NCBI GenBank assembly: GCA_046351395.1
Contig: JAXLYP010000017.1
Span: forward strand, 193,508-246,456
DNA: 52,949 nucleotides
Reading direction: 5' to 3'
From: Polyangiaceae bacterium
GTDB taxonomy: Bacteria; Myxococcota_A; Polyangia; Polyangiales; Polyangiaceae
A model generated the notes under the pieces. That model did not search any database and had not been told where the DNA came from. It saw nothing but the letters and a program-made list of their open reading frames with translations. Made by a program: the position numbers and the translations under genes. Positions 1 to 6,859 of this stretch are shown one piece after another (the first letter of the stretch is position 1; each line of letters starts with the position of its first letter).

Positions 1-242
1 TGCGTGCGGTCCGCTCGGCGCTCGAGGAGCTCACCGATCGCGAGCAGGACATCCTCCGGGTGACGGCGCTCTACCAGCGCCACGGCGAGAAGCACCAACG
101 TTTGCCGAACGACGTCTCGAGCGATCTCGCGACGCGTTGGGGCACGAACAACGAGAACATCCGCGCGATCCGCAGCCGCGCGATGAAGAAGCTCGAGGCT
201 CGCCTCCGAGAGGTGCTGCACGACGACGGGGGGGCGCGGTGA
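1..242 (+). CDS. Sigma-70 family (ECF-type) sigma factor, 3' fragment (region 4 HTH); 5' end lies outside the window
   Basis: Frame-3 translation from nt 3: RAVRSALEELTDREQDILRVTALYQRHGEKHQRLPNDVSSDLATRWGTNNENIRAIRSRAMKKLEARLREVL*. This has the region-4 pattern (LTxRExxVL ... IAxxLGxSxxTVRxRxxRALxKLR). Stop TGA at 240-242. Confidence 0.6.
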   Translation, partial: RAVRSALEELTDREQDILRVTALYQRHGEKHQRLPNDVSSDLATRWGTNNENIRAIRSRAMKKLEARLREVLHDDGGAR

Positions 243-344
243 CCGTGGAACGAAAGGACGACGAGGTGGAGGCGATCGTGAGGCGCGCCGTCGGCGGGCT
301 CCTGCCGACGACGGAGGACGAGGTCCGGCGCGCGGAAGAAGAAG

Positions 345-1415
345 GTGTCGAGTTCGATGGAGAGCTGCCCGCAGGGCTCGCGTCCTTTCGACCGCGCGCC
401 GACGCCCAGCCGGCTCGAGGAGGCGCGTCGGCGGAACCATCGAGGAGCGCCGCGCCCGCCCGCGCACCGCGGTCACGACGGCGGGCAGGGTCGCGGACGT
501 CGTCTCGCTCGAGGATCGGCGCGCCCGGCGTCCGTCGGCGGTCCTCACGCACGCGGCGTTCGGCGCGCTCTGCGGGCGGCCGCCGCCGCGGCCGTCGTGC
601 TCTTCGTCCAGCGTCCTTCCAAGGAGATCGCGGGCGCGGGCCGCGCGGACGATCGCTCCCCGGGAGCGAGCGCGCAGACACACGCCACGCCAGCGCCGAG
701 CGCCGATCCCCCTCGGATCCAGGTCCCGGCGGGGCCCGCGTGCGCATCGAGCCCGACCGAGTGCCCCTCGGGCCGGGCGTGCGTTCCGACCTCGATGGAC
801 GAGATCAGCGCGAGCCGCTATCGCCTGAGGGTCGGTGATTTCGCGCCGACCGAGATCGGGAAGGAGGCGCTCTCGCGGGGACCCATCGACGTCTGCGCGC
901 GCGTGGGCGCCTCGGAGATCGCGTGCCGCCCGGCGCGCATCGGAGAGACGAGCAGCATGGTCGTGCTGCCGATCACGTTCAGCGGCAGCGAGGGCCTCTC
1001 CGGTGTCACGATCGACGTGCGCTTCCGCGGCGCGCAGGTGCCCATCGGACAATGGTCCGGACCGCTCGGCCTGTCCGCGAAGGGCCTCTGCAACGGTCAG
1101 CTCGTCGAGCCGACGCAGCCCGGGGGAGACAAACTCGGGACCATCTCACTCTTCGCCGACGACGCGACGTACGTCGAGGTCGGTCGCGCCGCGACGAGCA
1201 CGGACGCGGAGGCCATCGGCGCCGCGTTCGACACGCCGCTGCCCCTCCGCCTGTTCGAATCGAGCCGCCTTGGACCGGAGAAGTTCGTGGTCGCGTTCGG
1301 GCCCGTCACCGTCGTGGAGGCCGAGCGGATTCGGTGGGCGGTGAACGACGGGGGCGGGCACGCGACCGTGTCGCTCGGAGCAGACTTCCTTGGGGCTCCT
1401 CGCGCGCTTCGCTGA
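345..1415 (+). CDS. Membrane-anchored protein downstream of the sigma factor (anti-sigma candidate); N-terminal frame and start uncertain
   Basis: A GTG at 239 overlaps the sigma stop (GTGA) and opens a frame-2 ORF that decays into Arg-rich sequence. The convincing protein-like sequence is in frame 0: a hydrophobic segment RALRAAAAAAVVLFV, then a ~280-aa non-Arg-rich domain (CPSGRACVPTSMDEISASRYRLRVGDFAPTEIGKEAL...VAFGPVTVVEAERIRWAVNDGGG). The last ~9 codons fall inside repeat copy A. Confidence 0.45.
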   Translation: MSSSMESCPQGSRPFDRAPTPSRLEEARRRNHRGAPRPPAHRGHDGGQGRGRRLARGSARPASVGGPHARGVRRALRAAAAAAVVLFVQRPSKEIAGAGRADDRSPGASAQTHATPAPSADPPRIQVPAGPACASSPTECPSGRACVPTSMDEISASRYRLRVGDFAPTEIGKEALSRGPIDVCARVGASEIACRPARIGETSSMVVLPITFSGSEGLSGVTIDVRFRGAQVPIGQWSGPLGLSAKGLCNGQLVEPTQPGGDKLGTISLFADDATYVEVGRAATSTDAEAIGAAFDTPLPLRLFESSRLGPEKFVVAFGPVTVVEAERIRWAVNDGGGHATVSLGADFLGAPRALR

Positions 1416-1623
1416 GCTGCTTCTCAGGCCGGTTTGGGGTGGCCCGTGAGGTGTCCCATCCCGCCTTCTCGGACGCCCACGCATGGCGCTTGGCGCCGGC
1501 CTTGCCGTTCCAAGTGAAGCGGACCTCGATGAGCCTCTCTGGCTCGCCGTGGACCACCGGATAGTAGTCGTGGAACTGGATGTCGAACACGGTGGAGACC
1601 GGCTCGGACGGTTCGTCGATCAC
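1306..1623 (-). pseudogene. Decayed partial duplicate of the 3' end of the methyltransferase gene at 4242..5039
   Basis: The minus-strand frame encodes ...FDIQFHDYYPVVHGEPERLIEVRFTWNGKAGAKRHAWASEKAGWDTSR.... This aligns to the methyltransferase C-terminus ...YLVPLIPFLFAWDGTVSALRAYAPEELLDIARGVPGTERYAWASEKGGMGLYLTGRPKAS*. Nucleotide identity is ~85% over ~115 bp (1388-1499 vs 4204-4322), with weaker similarity and indels extending to ~1650. The hydrophobic segments are lost and the frame is shifted relative to the intact copy. Confidence 0.35.
1388..1499. repeat. Direct repeat copy A (~115 bp), paired with 4204..4322
   Basis: cttggggctcctcgcgcgcttcgctgagctgcttctcaggccggtttggggtggcccgtgaggtgtcccatcccgccttctcggacgcccacgcatggcgcttggcgccgg aligns with cttgtgggctcctcgcgcgcttcgacgagctcctccctcaggaggccttggggcggcccgtgaggtagaggcccatcccgcccttctcggacgcccacgcatagcgctcggtgccgg. 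Both copies are in the same orientation and flank the 1781..3994 gene. Confidence 0.8.
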
Positions 1624-1780
1624 CGTCGCATCTTCGAAGTCGGGGCGAGGGAACTCCGCGCGGTGGACGTTCGCTTCTCCAGGCGTTGCCCATCGGACGA
1701 GGCGCGCCCCTCCGACGTCGGCAGGTCCGCCGAGGCGTGTCGGCGCTCGGGGCCGTCCTCGCGCCCGAGGTGAGGCGAGC

Positions 1781-3994
1781 TCACAGTCGCAAGATCGAGA
1801 GGAGGTTCGCGTAGTCGTCGGTGAAGGGGCGCGCGCCGGTCGGCGCGGCCGACCAGCCGAGCGCCTCGAGCGCGGCGCGCCTTTTGGGGGCTCGCGTCGC
1901 CGCGATCCAGCGGCTCGGGAGCGCGAGATCCTCGTCCGCTGCGGACCTCGCGCAGAGGAGGGGCGGCGCGCCCAGCGCGTCCAGCGCGGCGGCGAGCGGC
2001 CCCGCGAGATCGTAGAACCGGTTCGAGATCTGCACGGCCAGCACGCCATCGGGGGCGAGGACGCGCAGCGTGTCGGTGAGCGCCTCCATCGTGAGGAGGT
2101 GCACTGGGAGCGAGTCGCTCGAGAAGGCGTCGACGACGACCAGCGCGTACCTCTCGTCCGGCTCTGCGCGGAGCGAGAGGCGCGCGTCCCCCAGGACGAT
2201 CCGCGGGCGCTCCGGCGCGTCCGACACGTACGTGAAGAGGGTCGGGTTCGTCGCGATCGTGACGACGACCGGATCGATCTCGAAGAACGTCATCCTCACG
2301 CCGGGCTGGTCGTACGCGGCGAGCGTGCCCGCGCCGAGCCCGACCACCGCGACGTCGCCGCGCGCCTCCGCGTCGAGCGCGACGCCGAACACGTCCGCGA
2401 TCGGGCTACCTGGAGCGAAGTACGCCGTCGGCCGACGGCGCTTCTCCTGGGCCGTCCACTGCGATCCGTGCACCGTCGTCCCGCTGTAGAGGGTCGCGAC
2501 CTCGCCGCCCCGGGTCCGTCGGACCTCGCTCACGCCGAAGAAGCTCCGCCCGCGGTACGCCACCCCGGTGCGCAGCCCGAACGCGCCGATGACGAGCGCC
2601 GTGGCGGTCGTCGCGACGAGGATCCACGGTCGCGTGCCGAGCAGGAGCAGCAGCCCGCCGACCACGAGCGACAACAAACCGATCTGGCGATCCCTCCCGC
2701 CGTCCCGGACGAGGATCACGGCGAGCACGCCCGCGCCGAAGACGTAGGGACCCAGGCGCCCGGCGAACTCTCCGAGGATGGATCGGAGGTCCTGCCCGCG
2801 CGCGCCCCAGGCGTCTCGGTGGAGCGCGACCGCGACGAGCGCGCCGAGGAGAAGGATGGGGTACTCCCAGATGTCGGGGAACGCGCGCGGCGCCACGAGC
2901 GCGACGAACATCGAGCCCAGCGCGCCCCCGACGGACACGACGACGTAGAACTCGGTCGCTCGCGCGGGATCGGGGCGATCCCGCGCGAGGAGCCCGTGGA
3001 GCGCCACCACGACGACGCCGAACGCGACGAGCATGATCGGCAAGAGCGCGAGTACGGGCCCGGTCGACGCGCCGTAGAGGACCCAGAGCAACGTGATCAT
3101 CGCGGGCGCCGCGACGATCGCCCAGCGGACGACGCGTCGGGTCGAGAACGCGACGATGAAGGAGCCGATGTAGAGCGCGAGCGGCACGACCCAGACGAGC
3201 GGCGCCGCCACGAGATCCGTCGACAGGAACGTGGTCACCGCGGAGAGCAATCCCGAAGGGACCGCGGAGAGGAGCAACCAGCGCGCGCGCCGTCGATGCG
3301 TGATGCGGGGGGGCTCGGCCCGGGCCTCGTCCAGTGTGGCGCGGGACCCGGTCGGCGAGAGAGCGCGCCCCCTCCACCTGGTGACCGCCGCGAGCGCGAG
3401 CGCCAAGACGAGCGCGGCGTACGCCGCGAACCACGCGTGGCGCTGCGCGCGGAGCCCGAGGCGGGGCTCGACGAGGAGAGGGTAGGCGAACAGCGCGAGC
3501 ATCGAGCCCGCGTTGCTGATCGCGTAGAGCCAATAGGGATCGCGCTCGCCCTGCGGTCCGAGCGAAGACCGATACCAAGCCGAGAGCAGCGGGGTGGTCG
3601 CGGTGAGGACGAACAACGGCAGCCCGATGACGACGACGAGCAGCCGGAGCAGCTCCAGCGCGGCGGGGAGCGACCCGATGCCGAGATCGGAGAGGCGATC
3701 CGGGACGAGGAGCGACAGCGCGAGCCCGAGCGACGCGAGCCCCATGTGCACGATCGGCCCCCAACGACCGAGCCGCGTGATCGAGAGGTGCGCGTAGACG
3801 TAGCCCGCGACGAGGCAAATCTGGAAGAAGCAGAGCGCGGTAGCCCAGACCATCGGCGCGCCGCCGAAGACCGGCAGGAGGAGCTTTCCAACGAGCGGCT
3901 CCACGCTGAACAGCAAGAACGCGGAGAGCCCGATCGACACGGCGAAGGGCGCGGTCGTGCCGAGCGTCGTGGAGCGGGGGGGCGGAAGCGGCAC
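1781..3994 (-). CDS. Fused multi-TM (MFS-like) / spermidine-synthase-like polyamine aminopropyltransferase family protein
   Basis: The C-terminal domain carries the spermidine-synthase (SAM-MTase fold) signature: VAVVGLGAGTLAAYDQPGVRMTFFEIDPVVV...RIVLGDARLSL...YALVVVDAFSSDSLPVHLLTMEALTDTLRVLAPDGVLAVQ. The N-terminal ~500 aa is a run of hydrophobic helices. Stop TGA at 1781-1783 (...DDYANLLSILRL*). Start assigned to a GTG at ~3994 (VPLPPPRSTTLGTTAPFAVSIGLSAFLLF...); this is uncertain, and an alternative is the Met at ~3853. Confidence 0.75.
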   Translation of the reverse strand: MPLPPPRSTTLGTTAPFAVSIGLSAFLLFSVEPLVGKLLLPVFGGAPMVWATALCFFQICLVAGYVYAHLSITRLGRWGPIVHMGLASLGLALSLLVPDRLSDLGIGSLPAALELLRLLVVVIGLPLFVLTATTPLLSAWYRSSLGPQGERDPYWLYAISNAGSMLALFAYPLLVEPRLGLRAQRHAWFAAYAALVLALALAAVTRWRGRALSPTGSRATLDEARAEPPRITHRRRARWLLLSAVPSGLLSAVTTFLSTDLVAAPLVWVVPLALYIGSFIVAFSTRRVVRWAIVAAPAMITLLWVLYGASTGPVLALLPIMLVAFGVVVVALHGLLARDRPDPARATEFYVVVSVGGALGSMFVALVAPRAFPDIWEYPILLLGALVAVALHRDAWGARGQDLRSILGEFAGRLGPYVFGAGVLAVILVRDGGRDRQIGLLSLVVGGLLLLLGTRPWILVATTATALVIGAFGLRTGVAYRGRSFFGVSEVRRTRGGEVATLYSGTTVHGSQWTAQEKRRRPTAYFAPGSPIADVFGVALDAEARGDVAVVGLGAGTLAAYDQPGVRMTFFEIDPVVVTIATNPTLFTYVSDAPERPRIVLGDARLSLRAEPDERYALVVVDAFSSDSLPVHLLTMEALTDTLRVLAPDGVLAVQISNRFYDLAGPLAAALDALGAPPLLCARSAADEDLALPSRWIAATRAPKRRAALEALGWSAAPTGARPFTDDYANLLSILRL

Positions 3995-4203
3995 CAGGCG
4001 CCGCCATGCTATCGGGTCTCGGGGACCGGGGGCTCCTCCGCACGCTGGTACGAACGTACCTGAGCGGATCGCCGCCGCACCTGGTGGCGAATCCCGCGCT
4101 GGACCGGACCTTTTTGGACCCCGCGCGATGCGCAAGCCAATGACCGCGCAAGGATGGTTCGAATGTCCAATGAGTCCACCGAGGGGCGTGCCGCCCGGAG
4201 CGT

Positions 4204-4322
4204 TCTTGTGGGCTCCTCGCGCGCTTCGACGAGCTCCTCCCTCAGGAGGCCTTGGGGCGGCCCGTGAGGTAGAGGCCCATCCCGCCCTTCTCGGACGCCC
4301 ACGCATAGCGCTCGGTGCCGGG
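4204..4322. repeat. Direct repeat copy B (~115 bp) inside the 3' end of the methyltransferase gene
   Basis: See the feature at 1388..1499. This copy also contains a small hairpin, cctcc-ctca-ggagg, at ~4235-4250. Confidence 0.8.
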
Positions 4323-5039
4323 GACCCCGCGCGCGATGTCCAGGAGCTCCTCGGGCGCGTACGCGCGGAGCGCGGACACCGTCCCGTCCCACGCGAAGAG
4401 GAACGGGATGAGCGGCACCAAATAGGTGAGGAGCCAGCGCGACGCGCGCACCGGACGCACGAGCGGGACGAGCGCAAACGGCAGCGTGAAGAGCACGAGC
4501 GCGTTCGGCAAGAGCGCAAACGGCGACAGCGGCGCGGGCATCTTGCGCATCATCGGGTTCGCGGCGACGTCGAAGAACGCGACGTGCGCGCCGCTCGCGA
4601 CCGCATCCGCGAGGAGCGAATGGATCGCCTCGGGCGGGAAGTGGTGGAGCGCCCCGAACATGGTCCGCAAACCTCGGAGATCGGAGGGGACGTGCATCGC
4701 GTCGACCGGCTCGCCGTGCACCGCCACGTTCGCGAGTCCCCGCGTCCGCCCGATGGTCGCCTCATTGGGGTGCCGATCGGTCAGCAGGAACCGCACGTCC
4801 GTCCGCCCTCGCGCCGCGAGCGCCCTCGCCATGAAGAGCGCCCCTCCGCCGCCGCCGGAGCAGAGGTCGACGACCTGCTGCCCGCCGCTCGCGTCGATCG
4901 CGCGCTCGAGGACGTCGACGAGCGGCTGGTAGAACTTCACCAGCCCGAAGAAGGTATCCAAGAGGTCCGTCCCGCCGTCTCGAATCGCGCCCGGCATCCA
5001 GTCGAGATCCTCGAGCTCCACGAAGTGCACGCGTCTCAT
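4242..5039 (-). CDS. Class I SAM-dependent methyltransferase with a C-terminal membrane segment
   Basis: Motif I VVDLCSGGGGGALFMARAL and post-I acidic residue in RFLLTDRHP. The C-terminus is hydrophobic (LLPNALVLFTLPFALVPLV...LTYLVPLIPFLFAW). ATG (cat on the + strand) at 5037-5039 gives MRRVHFVELEDLDWMPG...; stop at 4242. Confidence 0.8.
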   Translation of the reverse strand: MRRVHFVELEDLDWMPGAIRDGGTDLLDTFFGLVKFYQPLVDVLERAIDASGGQQVVDLCSGGGGGALFMARALAARGRTDVRFLLTDRHPNEATIGRTRGLANVAVHGEPVDAMHVPSDLRGLRTMFGALHHFPPEAIHSLLADAVASGAHVAFFDVAANPMMRKMPAPLSPFALLPNALVLFTLPFALVPLVRPVRASRWLLTYLVPLIPFLFAWDGTVSALRAYAPEELLDIARGVPGTERYAWASEKGGMGLYLTGRPKAS

Positions 5040-5154
5040 GGCCCGGGAGGATAGGGTCGTTCCTGCGCCGGAGAAGCGCGGCAGATCGCCGCGCCGGTGC
5101 GCTCTTGTCAGCCTCGGCCGCCCCGGCCGTCGTCTCCCCGCGAGGAGGTCAGCC

Positions 5155-5511
5155 ATGTCGGCTGCACGAAGGAGCTCGCTCGCTGCGGCGCTCACGCTCG
5201 CCGTGGTCCACGCGAACGAGGCGAACGCCGAGGAGCCGTTCCCGATCATTTCGCTCCGCGACGCGACGGTCGGCGTCGGTTCGACGGGAGCGCCCGCAGG
5301 GTGGATCGCGCTGCCGACGCTCGCGCTCTCGCCCTCGGGCGGGTCGAGCCTGCGCCCCGTTCTCGAGATCGACGCGATCGACGTCCAGCGCGGCGCCGTG
5401 GTCCCGATCCTTCGCCTCGAGCTGAAGCTCCCCGTCGCGGACTTCGTGCTCGACTGGAGCCCCGACCCCGCCCTCGGGACTCACGCCCGCCTCCGCGTGT
5501 CCCTGAATTGA
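5155..5511 (+). CDS. Small secreted protein (118 aa), function unknown
   Basis: SD gaggagg at 5143-5149 lies 6 nt upstream of ATG 5155. Signal peptide MSAARRSSLAAALTLAVVHANEANA. Stop at 5509-5511. Confidence 0.7.
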   Translation: MSAARRSSLAAALTLAVVHANEANAEEPFPIISLRDATVGVGSTGAPAGWIALPTLALSPSGGSSLRPVLEIDAIDVQRGAVVPILRLELKLPVADFVLDWSPDPALGTHARLRVSLN

Positions 5512-5647
5512 CCGCTCGCCGCTCCGCCGCGCTGAATTTCGCGCCCGCCCCTCGGAGCGTCGTTCGCAAACCTCGGAATTTCGACCTCCCGACCAGCACG
5601 AAAGCCGCGAGAGGGATTTCATTCCGAGCTCGTCACAACGCGCACCG

Positions 5648-6859
5648 ATGCGACTCCGAAGCGCGCTCCTCCCCGCCTTGGGTGTATTGTCTGTCGCGTG
5701 TGGGGGCGGCGCCTCACCTCGTGTGCAGGAGCCGAAGCCGACTGGGCAGTGGCGGGGATCATCGACTGGGCAGTGGACGGGATCCCCGACCGGTGTGCCG
5801 TGGGGTGGCTCCATCGTCGCGGGCGGCCTTGCGATCCTGCGGAGCGGCGCGTGTCCGCTCACGGAGATCGCGCCGGGGCAGTGGGCCCAAGCGGCGTGCG
5901 CGCCCATCGTCCAGTTCAAGAACGCGCTGCCCTATCGGGCGCCACCTTTCGTGGCGAGCGCGCTCCCCGCCTATGTAGACCACCGCGCCTCGGGGCTCGA
6001 GGGCCCCGTGAAGAACCAACAGAACGTGGGCGCGTGCGGCGCCTTCTCCGTCACGACCGCGATGGAGAACGCGCTCCGCAAGCAAGGCCGGCAGGACGTC
6101 CTCTCGGCGCTCCATTACTACGTGAAGTACGGCACGGTCGCCGGCACCGGCGAGAACGGCGACGCGATCACCACGGACGCCGTCTGGCCGTACGACCCCG
6201 TGAAGGCATGCCTCTTGTCGCCCGACGAGGGCGGGGACACGTGCGATCAGGACTTCGGCGTCGTGCGGGGCGGCGGTCGCGGCGATCCGCGGTTGCGCGC
6301 CGAGCAGGCGAACGCAGACAGTCGCGGGCTCGTGCGGCTCGACCGCGCGTGGAGCATCGATCCCCGGGACGTAGACGCCATCGCGGCGATCCTCGCCGCC
6401 GGCGACGACGTCGACGCGACCTTCGCGTTCGATCGGGATGCGTGGAGCTACCGGGGGATCCAGAGCGGCGTCTTCAGCCACTACCAGGGCCCCAAGGACT
6501 ATGGTCATGGCGTCGTCCTCGCGGGGTATCGCTGGGTGAACGGAGAGCGCCAGTTCCTCATCCACAACAGCTGGGGCGCCGACTGGGCGGAGAGCGGCTA
6601 TGCGTGGATGGCGGAGAGCGACGTCCGCGCGAACCTTTGCTCGGCCTACAAGATCGATCTCGCCGAAGCGGGGACGCCGCGCCGGCCCGAGGAGACGGCG
6701 CACTATTGTCCGGGCGGGCTCCCTCCCATCGGCAACCAATGTATCCCCCTCCCGCAAGCCTCGACCGCGTGTCCGCCGGGCACGATCGGCCTTCCGGGTC
6801 TTTGTCTGCCCACCGGGGGCATCAATCCCCTCGGAGACCTCGCGCCAGGTGCGCCGTGA
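5648..6859 (+). CDS. Papain-like (C1 family) cysteine peptidase lipoprotein
   Basis: Lipobox LSVAC-GG. Catalytic residues are present in papain-like context: Gln/Cys in QQNVGACGAFSV, His in HGVVLAGY, Asn in NSWGADWAESGYAWM. Confidence 0.85.
   Translation: MRLRSALLPALGVLSVACGGGASPRVQEPKPTGQWRGSSTGQWTGSPTGVPWGGSIVAGGLAILRSGACPLTEIAPGQWAQAACAPIVQFKNALPYRAPPFVASALPAYVDHRASGLEGPVKNQQNVGACGAFSVTTAMENALRKQGRQDVLSALHYYVKYGTVAGTGENGDAITTDAVWPYDPVKACLLSPDEGGDTCDQDFGVVRGGGRGDPRLRAEQANADSRGLVRLDRAWSIDPRDVDAIAAILAAGDDVDATFAFDRDAWSYRGIQSGVFSHYQGPKDYGHGVVLAGYRWVNGERQFLIHNSWGADWAESGYAWMAESDVRANLCSAYKIDLAEAGTPRRPEETAHYCPGGLPPIGNQCIPLPQASTACPPGTIGLPGLCLPTGGINPLGDLAPGAP

Follow-up and report, generated by a model that had tools for sequence, protein, structure and literature searches.

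A stretch of 52,949 nucleotides from an uncultured Polyangiaceae bacterium (assembly GCA_046351395.1, contig JAXLYP010000017.1, positions 193,508 to 246,456 of the forward strand), hereafter called the window, has a G+C content of 70% and contains, near its left end, two direct repeats that flank a gene for a fused major facilitator superfamily (MFS)/spermidine-synthase-like protein. The left repeat, copy A, contains the 3' end of an anti-sigma-like gene, while the right one, copy B, contains the 3' end of a putative methyltransferase (MTase) gene that is transcribed towards it. Based on the alignment of the two copies with the corresponding region of four related lineages, we consider it highly probable that the repeats arose as a target duplication during an old insertion specific to this lineage, and that what is seen today is a decaying scar and not a working element. 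The features of the locus, from left to right, are the following.

Ending at 242, plus strand: sigma-70 family gene; the window starts inside it.
239 to 1415, plus strand: anti-sigma-like gene, located 3' of the sigma-70 family gene and convergent with the MTase gene; assigned by tblastn of the orthologues in four related contigs (L011-L014), by DNA alignment and by the gene order of the relatives.
1367 to 1499, no strand assigned: core of copy A; the anti-sigma-like gene has its functional 3' end at 1367-1415 (plus strand), and the MTase 3' end at 1424-1499 (minus strand) is dead.
1500 to 1535, minus strand: tentative extension of copy A, matching the MTase codons LIPFLFAWDG (about 4379-4413) provided that copy A is taken to have lost 57 nt.
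1538 to 1722, minus strand: dead internal gene fragment of about 60 codons, without a start codon; relative of residues 468-524 of a protein referred to as P0242.
1781 to 3994, minus strand: intact fused MFS/spermidine-synthase-like gene, here called the fusion gene, of 737 amino acids (aa), with an inferred GTG start; assigned through the NCBIfam family NF037959.
3995 to 4186, minus strand: 5' flank of the fusion gene, about 190 nt, non-coding by eye, with no match to the flanks of the relatives' genes or elsewhere in the window.
4187 to 4321, no strand assigned: core of copy B, with the functional MTase end at 4242-4321 (minus strand) and a dead 3' remnant of the anti-sigma-like gene at 4187-4241 (plus sense).
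4242 to 5039, minus strand: MTase gene, putative class I S-adenosylmethionine (SAM)-dependent, 265 aa; assigned by a 100% protein match and by the names of its relatives.

Extent and composition of the direct repeat

A BLASTN comparison of the two regions gives one significant collinear match, in which positions 1389-1499 align with 4205-4321 over 117 columns, with 83.8% identity and an E value of 6e-26 against the whole window. The preliminary description of this DNA, made from the sequence alone, had proposed this comparison and had placed the repeats at 1388-1499 and 4204-4322 with about 85% identity, values that the BLASTN match confirms. With permissive scoring, the match widens to 1367-1499 against 4187-4321, with 80-82% identity over 138-139 columns and three to four small indels, and a repeat finder resolves it into three collinear pieces (1386-1421/4203-4238, 1423-1452/4241-4270 and 1464-1499/4286-4321). 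The mismatches are scattered along the repeat; the longest perfect run between the copies is 21 nt, and a block of 19 nt is also perfectly conserved. No third copy was found by BLASTN in the window. The duplicated segment therefore measures 133 nt (copy A) and 135 nt (copy B) in its core, and possibly about 227 nt if the tentative extension described below is included.

The repeat had been described as the 3' end of the MTase gene, present once as the live gene end and once as a decayed duplicate. The multiple alignment bears this out for the MTase half. In copy B, the last 26 codons and the stop are intact (...ERYAWASEKGGMGLYLTGRPKAS*), whereas the MTase tail of copy A (...KRHAWASEKAGWDTSR...) has lost 3 nt at one site and 1 nt at another, the latter deletion causing a frameshift; both peptides had been read correctly in the preliminary description. 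However, the repeat continues for about 55 nt past the MTase stop, and this second half corresponds to where the convergent plus-strand gene ends. The stop codon of the anti-sigma-like gene (1413-1415) lies within copy A, and its last ~16 codons plus the stop occupy 1367-1415; the live end reads ...ADFLGAPRALR*, compared to ADFVGAPRELR* in the related contig L011. In copy B, the remnant of the same ~16 codons has lost its stop by a change from TGA to CGA. As judged from these alignments, the repeat is the entire ancestral junction between the two convergent genes, with reciprocal live and dead halves. Since both gene ends are duplicated, neither the MTase gene nor the anti-sigma-like gene is truncated.

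The empty site in related lineages and the polarity of the duplication

We compared the locus with the contigs that carry the closest MTase homologues, L011, L012, L013 and L014, whose MTase proteins have 87, 83, 77 and 81% aa identity, respectively. In each of these contigs, the convergent anti-sigma-like orthologue adjoins the MTase gene at a distance of 0-21 nt, with no gene between them, and the sigma-70 gene comes next. L023, a contig deposited at JGI from another sample, belongs to the same lineage as L012 and shows the same state, and the empty site is thus represented by five contigs from four related lineages. When L011 is aligned to the window, it matches 5095-4247 and then 1499-492, with 75 nt of L011 included in both blocks, which indicates that a single ancestral junction matches both copies. 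The outer flanks on both sides of the insert are syntenic with the relatives, indicating that nothing else was inserted nearby, and no spermidine-synthase-like gene is found within 5-8 kb on the sigma-70 side of the junction in the relatives. A synteny comparison had been suggested in the preliminary description, together with the idea that an old insertion or duplication-deletion event had put the fusion gene beside the MTase gene; the empty site, in which the MTase gene abuts the convergent gene and the junction aligns to both copies, supports that idea.

The alignment also indicates the direction of the change. In the MTase half, copies A and B have in common several derived states that are absent from the relatives, namely TAT/CAT instead of TAC, CCCCAA instead of CCCGAG, and an additional codon ahead of the stop; in the half that belongs to the anti-sigma-like gene, they share a derived block of about 25 nt, TTC(C)TTG.GGGCTCCTCGCGCGCTTCG. 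The MTase half of copy A is 88% identical to copy B and 70-80% identical to the relatives. The shared derived bases indicate that the duplication arose in the lineage of the window, once this had separated from that of L011, and that the empty site is the ancestral state. Other MTase homologues contribute little to this comparison: a scan of genome contigs with the MTase returned only distant alphaproteobacterial methyltransferases with no useful synteny, and the more distant homologues from Kofleriaceae (L020) and Polyangiaceae (L021 and L022) have unrelated neighbours and are uninformative about the site.

The duplication may be longer than its core. Upstream of position 1499, in the MTase sense, copy A encodes LIEVRFTWNG, which matches LIPFLFAWDG, located 19 codons further up in the MTase gene, at 22 of 29 nt (P = 0.004 in a codon shuffle and P = 0.01 in a protein shuffle). 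MAFFT, run with its --add option, puts this segment of copy A at the same MTase position, and the segment has in common with copy B a derived CTCATC (Ile), where all four relatives have CTCGTC/G (Val). If this extension is real, the duplication would tentatively be of about 227 bp, with copy A having later lost 57 nt. An alternative alignment of PERLIEV in copy A with PEELLDI was set aside, since the LIEVRFTWNG/LIPFLFAWDG pairing has support at the DNA level and from the shared derived base.

The insert and its cargo gene

The segment between the repeats extends from about 1536 to 4186 (~2.65 kb) and is composite: the fusion gene is preceded by about 190 nt of 5' flank and followed by about 60 nt of 3' flank and, beyond that, by a gene fragment of about 185 nt. 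The repeats had been said to bracket a single gene, but what lies between them is the fusion gene together with the unrelated fragment and the 5' flank, and not one clean gene. Likewise, the weaker similarity that had been thought to continue from copy A to about position 1650 is unsupported: it can be followed, tentatively, no further than about 1535, and the sequence between about 1538 and 1722 belongs to a fragment of a different gene.

The fusion gene is intact. Its product matches NF037959 with 49.6 bits (cut-off 40) through its C-terminal domain, residues 521-665, and has over 1000 homologues; those of 729-782 aa, some of them named spermidine synthase or fused MFS/spermidine synthase, align with 97-99% query coverage. 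The protein is an ordinary member of this family, with which it shares a long polytopic N-terminal region and a C-terminal aminopropyltransferase-like domain, and only its genomic position differs. The three top homologues have 71, 66 and 64% aa identity by BLASTP. Their genes, at L015 10001-12226, L016 2416-4605 and L017 1322-3544, stand in other contexts, after an AddAB-like helicase-nuclease pair in L015 and after a PlsC-type acyltransferase gene, with a 4-nt overlap, in L016 and L017, compared to the position after the MTase gene in the window, where the fusion gene is co-directional with the MTase gene and begins about 250 nt downstream of its stop. Two of these contigs, L015 and L016, originate from samples that also yielded the empty-site contigs L013 and L014. 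The DNA homology to the relatives (blastn) covers 3946-1795, that is, only the coding sequence; a tblastx comparison of the insert with the relatives' loci gave uninformative noise at 70% G+C. With the window as positive control, no flanking repeats were found around the fusion gene in L015, L016 or L017. The gene is thus observed in at least three neighbourhoods among close Polyangiaceae relatives, and this comparison of gene contexts suggests that it may have moved more than once.

The fusion gene is under purifying selection, with synonymous divergence (dS) of 0.59-0.68 from its homologues and a ratio of nonsynonymous to synonymous divergence (omega) of 0.29-0.44. That it has been kept by selection is also suggested by the decay around it, given that the dead halves of the repeats acquired three to four indels in about 130 nt while the 2.2-kb reading frame stayed open. 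Its G+C content at third codon positions (GC3) is 0.928, compared to 0.921 for the MTase gene, and the dS of the MTase gene relative to its orthologues is 0.51-0.80. The G+C content of the insert is 0.70-0.75 and that of the flanks is about 0.70, and no compositional anomaly was detected in the insert with respect to its flanks.

The fragment at 1538-1722 is characterised by a GC3 of 0.82 in its coding frame, against 0.70 and 0.43 in the other frames. In a phmmer search of 1.84 billion representative proteins, its sole real homologue is P0242 (E 9.6e-4), and the pairwise comparison places the match at residues 468-524 of 683 (BLASTP E 2e-12; tblastn E 4e-11). P0242 is U0414_20070, a hypothetical protein of 683 aa from the same metagenome-assembled genome (MAG); it contains the motif HELTHALGFEH, which is metzincin-like, and matches no Pfam family. 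A second candidate, P0241 (E 6.4e-09, seven stretches), was disregarded because it is a tandem-repeat protein that matches only residues 8-22 of the query, and a word-index protein search with the fragment from 1501-1740 returned no homologues. From its reading frame and this single homologue, 1538-1722 is a dead internal piece of a gene that belongs, as a diverged member, to a family represented in the same genome. Since the cargo gene resembles the flanking, vertically inherited gene in GC3 and dS, and since the only homologue of the fragment is encoded in the same genome, the source of the insert was probably the same or a closely related genome, and the gene would have been relocated or copied rather than acquired from a distant donor.

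The 5' flank at 3995-4186 presumably holds the promoter of the fusion gene. It contains no sigma-70 consensus promoter and no Rfam match. The sequence TGGCTTGCGCATCGC, spotted by eye at 4125-4139 on the minus strand, some 130 nt before the point where the fusion gene is inferred to start, has the GG-N10-GC spacing of sigma-54 -24/-12 promoters and occurs once in the window.

The exact product of the fusion gene is missing from a collection of 5.8 billion proteins, in which its best match has 71% identity, whereas the same collection contains the product of the neighbouring MTase gene at 100%. The fusion gene may have been skipped, or called differently, in the NCBI annotation. In L018, a contig of the Logan assemblies, the fusion gene is cut by the contig end.

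Searches for mobile and structured elements

Scans against Pfam and NCBIfam revealed no transposase, integrase or tyrosine or serine recombinase in the insert, whose contents are one intact open reading frame (ORF) and one dead fragment that is not of transposase origin, and no other ORF of the insert has a family match. Neither a plasmid or vector remnant nor a replication gene was found in the 2.65 kb. Terminal inverted repeats are also lacking: when the two 120-nt ends are aligned locally as an inverted repeat, the best score is 9, compared to a mean of 9.9 for shuffled sequences (standard deviation 1.7). No second copy of the insert or of its flanks exists in the window. At the RNA level, Rfam gave nothing above threshold over positions 1-6000 and nothing overlapping either copy; its lone match, the snoRNA sR14 at 3599-3650, has 21.2 bits against a gathering score of 38 and was taken as a chance, sub-threshold hit. 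The promoter and terminator scan found no consensus of either kind, and the folding of the two copies is no better than that of shuffled sequences on either strand (z of +0.3, +0.6 and +1.7).

The locus resembles the target-site duplications of insertion sequences and transposons in having direct target repeats around an insert and a single-copy empty site in the relatives. It differs from them in the length of the repeats, at least 135 bp here compared to a typical 2-15 bp, in the absence of a transposase and of terminal inverted repeats, and in the patchwork nature of the insert. In its outcome, it also resembles insertions of the fork stalling and template switching/microhomology-mediated break-induced replication (FoSTeS/MMBIR) type and to tandem duplications remodelled by deletions, the latter known as amplification-remodelling from Salmonella and E. 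coli genetics. Like them, it combines enzyme-independent joints, a composite insert, a flanking duplication of arbitrary length, an intragenomic source and the retention of only the selected gene; the likeness concerns the outcome and not a demonstrated mechanism. No directly relevant bacterial parallel emerged from a search of the literature.

Proposed origin of the locus

According to the reading that we favour, an ancestor would have had the MTase and anti-sigma-like genes arranged tail to tail with their stop codons touching, as they are in the four related lineages. The composite segment of ~2.65 kb would then have been placed into this junction, which would have been duplicated on both sides over at least 135 bp, or about 227 bp if the extension is real. 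Selection would have retained one gene end per copy, that of the MTase gene in B and that of the anti-sigma-like gene in A, while the redundant halves would have decayed through substitutions, small deletions, a frameshift and the loss of a stop codon. The long target duplication, the patchwork insert with at least three joints and its native composition together point to transposase-independent illegitimate recombination. This could have proceeded by replicative template switching, with re-entry into the target upstream of the point of departure, or through a larger tandem duplication, whose novel joint (from about MTase codon 210 to the interior of the other gene) would later have been trimmed by deletions. 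Both routes fit the data alike, and the data cannot separate them.

The repeats are relics without a present function. It had been suggested that they could still drive excision or amplification of the segment, but we judge this suggestion weak: repeats of 82-84% identity, with indels and a perfect match of at most 21 nt, would be poor substrates for homologous recombination given its minimal homology requirements. Recombination between the copies would be inefficient and is unlikely to occur now.

Several observations weigh against the proposed history. The right junction (about 1499-1540) and the segment 1500-3249 are seen in this MAG contig alone. The donor locus was not found when we looked for a copy in the window, for homologues of the fragment and at the context of P0242. 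The outgroups are limited to lineages with at most 87% aa identity. In addition, the derived bases that the copies share could be mimicked by gene conversion, which is unlikely given the indels that distinguish the copies, and the empty site of the relatives could in principle reflect a loss of the insert after the two repeats had recombined, a scenario that the derived characters shared by A and B oppose. Finally, the anti-sigma-like gene appears frameshifted, as described below, so the half of copy A that we call live may no longer be under selection.

Other explanations of the repeats were also considered. A Campbell-type integration, in which a circle carrying the fusion gene and a junction copy of about 135-230 bp entered by a single homologous crossover at the chromosomal junction, would produce exactly the geometry observed, with direct repeats of the homologous segment around the insert, and a circle derived from the same or a sister genome would account for the lineage-specific junction sequence in both copies. 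We nevertheless find this improbable. A circle in which the junction is combined with an unlinked gene and part of another gene has no plausible source, the insert holds none of the plasmid, vector or replication sequences searched for, and in the relatives the fusion gene stands in unrelated, repeat-free contexts. To the possibility that a site-specific island or prophage remnant entered at the MTase 3' end, bringing a replacement gene end in the manner of many islands that carry an integrase, and later lost its integrase and the rest of its content, we attach very little weight. The repeat does cover the 3' end of a protein-coding gene that stayed intact after the insertion while the other copy is redundant, and attL/attR pairs at gene 3' ends typically leave the gene end intact. 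However, the insert is only 2.65 kb long, with one housekeeping-type gene and no integrase or other mobile-element gene; the mismatches are spread along the repeat without a perfect core; both copies are lineage-specific and native over their full length, including the part that belongs to the other gene; the composition and GC3 of the insert are native; and, unlike in integrase islands, the 3' end of a second, convergent gene is also preserved.

An assembly artefact, that is, a chimeric MAG contig that joins junctions from two strains or from loci that are not 2.8 kb apart, deserves mention because the source is metagenome-assembled, the right junction has no independent confirmation, and the apparent frameshifts of the neighbouring gene could be consensus errors. 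The left junction, which includes copy B, is confirmed at 100% in two independent Logan assemblies from other runs, L018 and L019, which are identical to 5871-3250 and 5130-4093 and include the MTase gene, copy B and the start of the insert gene. Furthermore, at 82-84% identity the copies are too diverged for a repeat-induced misjoin, and a mixture of strains does not explain why each copy has one dead half, so that we regard an artefact as very unlikely. Least credible of all is a functional repeated element, such as a terminator, a regulatory RNA, an element similar to repetitive extragenic palindromes or miniature inverted-repeat transposable elements (REP/MITE-like) or a module for a C-terminal peptide, found by chance at two gene ends. 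Both copies do lie at gene 3' ends and contain perfectly conserved blocks of 19 and 21 nt, but there are only two of them in 52.9 kb, they show neither unusual folding (z of +0.3 to +1.7) nor a terminator pattern or Rfam match, the frameshift in one and the lost stop in the other indicate decay, and the single junction of the relatives aligns to both.

Under the insertion with target duplication that we favour, the class of event is ordinary, and this example of it is unusually legible. The locus reveals no new element, enzyme or regulatory system; it is a clean, datable scar of a single chromosomal gene that moved without a recognisable mobile element and whose neighbours were spared by the duplication of their junction, and it can serve as a worked example for studies of how gene order evolves and genes are relocated in large myxobacterial genomes. 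A broader conjecture, which we put forward as unlikely, is that single genes in such genomes are relocated independently of transposases, through the capture or copying of intragenomic DNA into a staggered break or a stalled fork. If this were true, such relocation would leave target duplications of at least 100 bp that spare both neighbours, and the three or more contexts of the cargo gene would fit its recurrence; if, in addition, such scars were common in Polyangiaceae, they would represent a distinct class of rearrangement signature.

Neighbouring genes and annotation of the locus

The product of the MTase gene is an exact match to U0414_27300 (NCBI locus tag) from the MAG Polyangiaceae bacterium, and its relatives carry the name class I SAM-dependent methyltransferase. 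In Pfam, it matches Methyltransf_25 only below threshold; none of the three proteins (MTase, fusion and anti-sigma-like) has a Pfam match that exceeds the threshold.

The anti-sigma-like gene has orthologues of about 365-394 aa in the relatives. Compared by tblastn with those of L011-L014, it is distributed over three frames (+2 at 254-433, +1 at 457-573 and +3 at 612-1412). Relative to the intact orthologues, it has a net insertion of 41 nt at about 406-470 and two additional G at about 574-576, while its C-terminal 267 aa are free of stops and 76% identical to L011. The frameshifted gene could be either a recent pseudogene or the result of consensus errors in the MAG.

Lastly, the ORF of 247 aa at 1306-2049 on the minus strand is an artefact and not a gene. 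It is a patchwork of the out-of-frame 3' end of the fusion gene, the P0242-like fragment, the frameshifted MTase tail of copy A and the antisense of the anti-sigma-like gene end, and gene callers could mis-annotate it.

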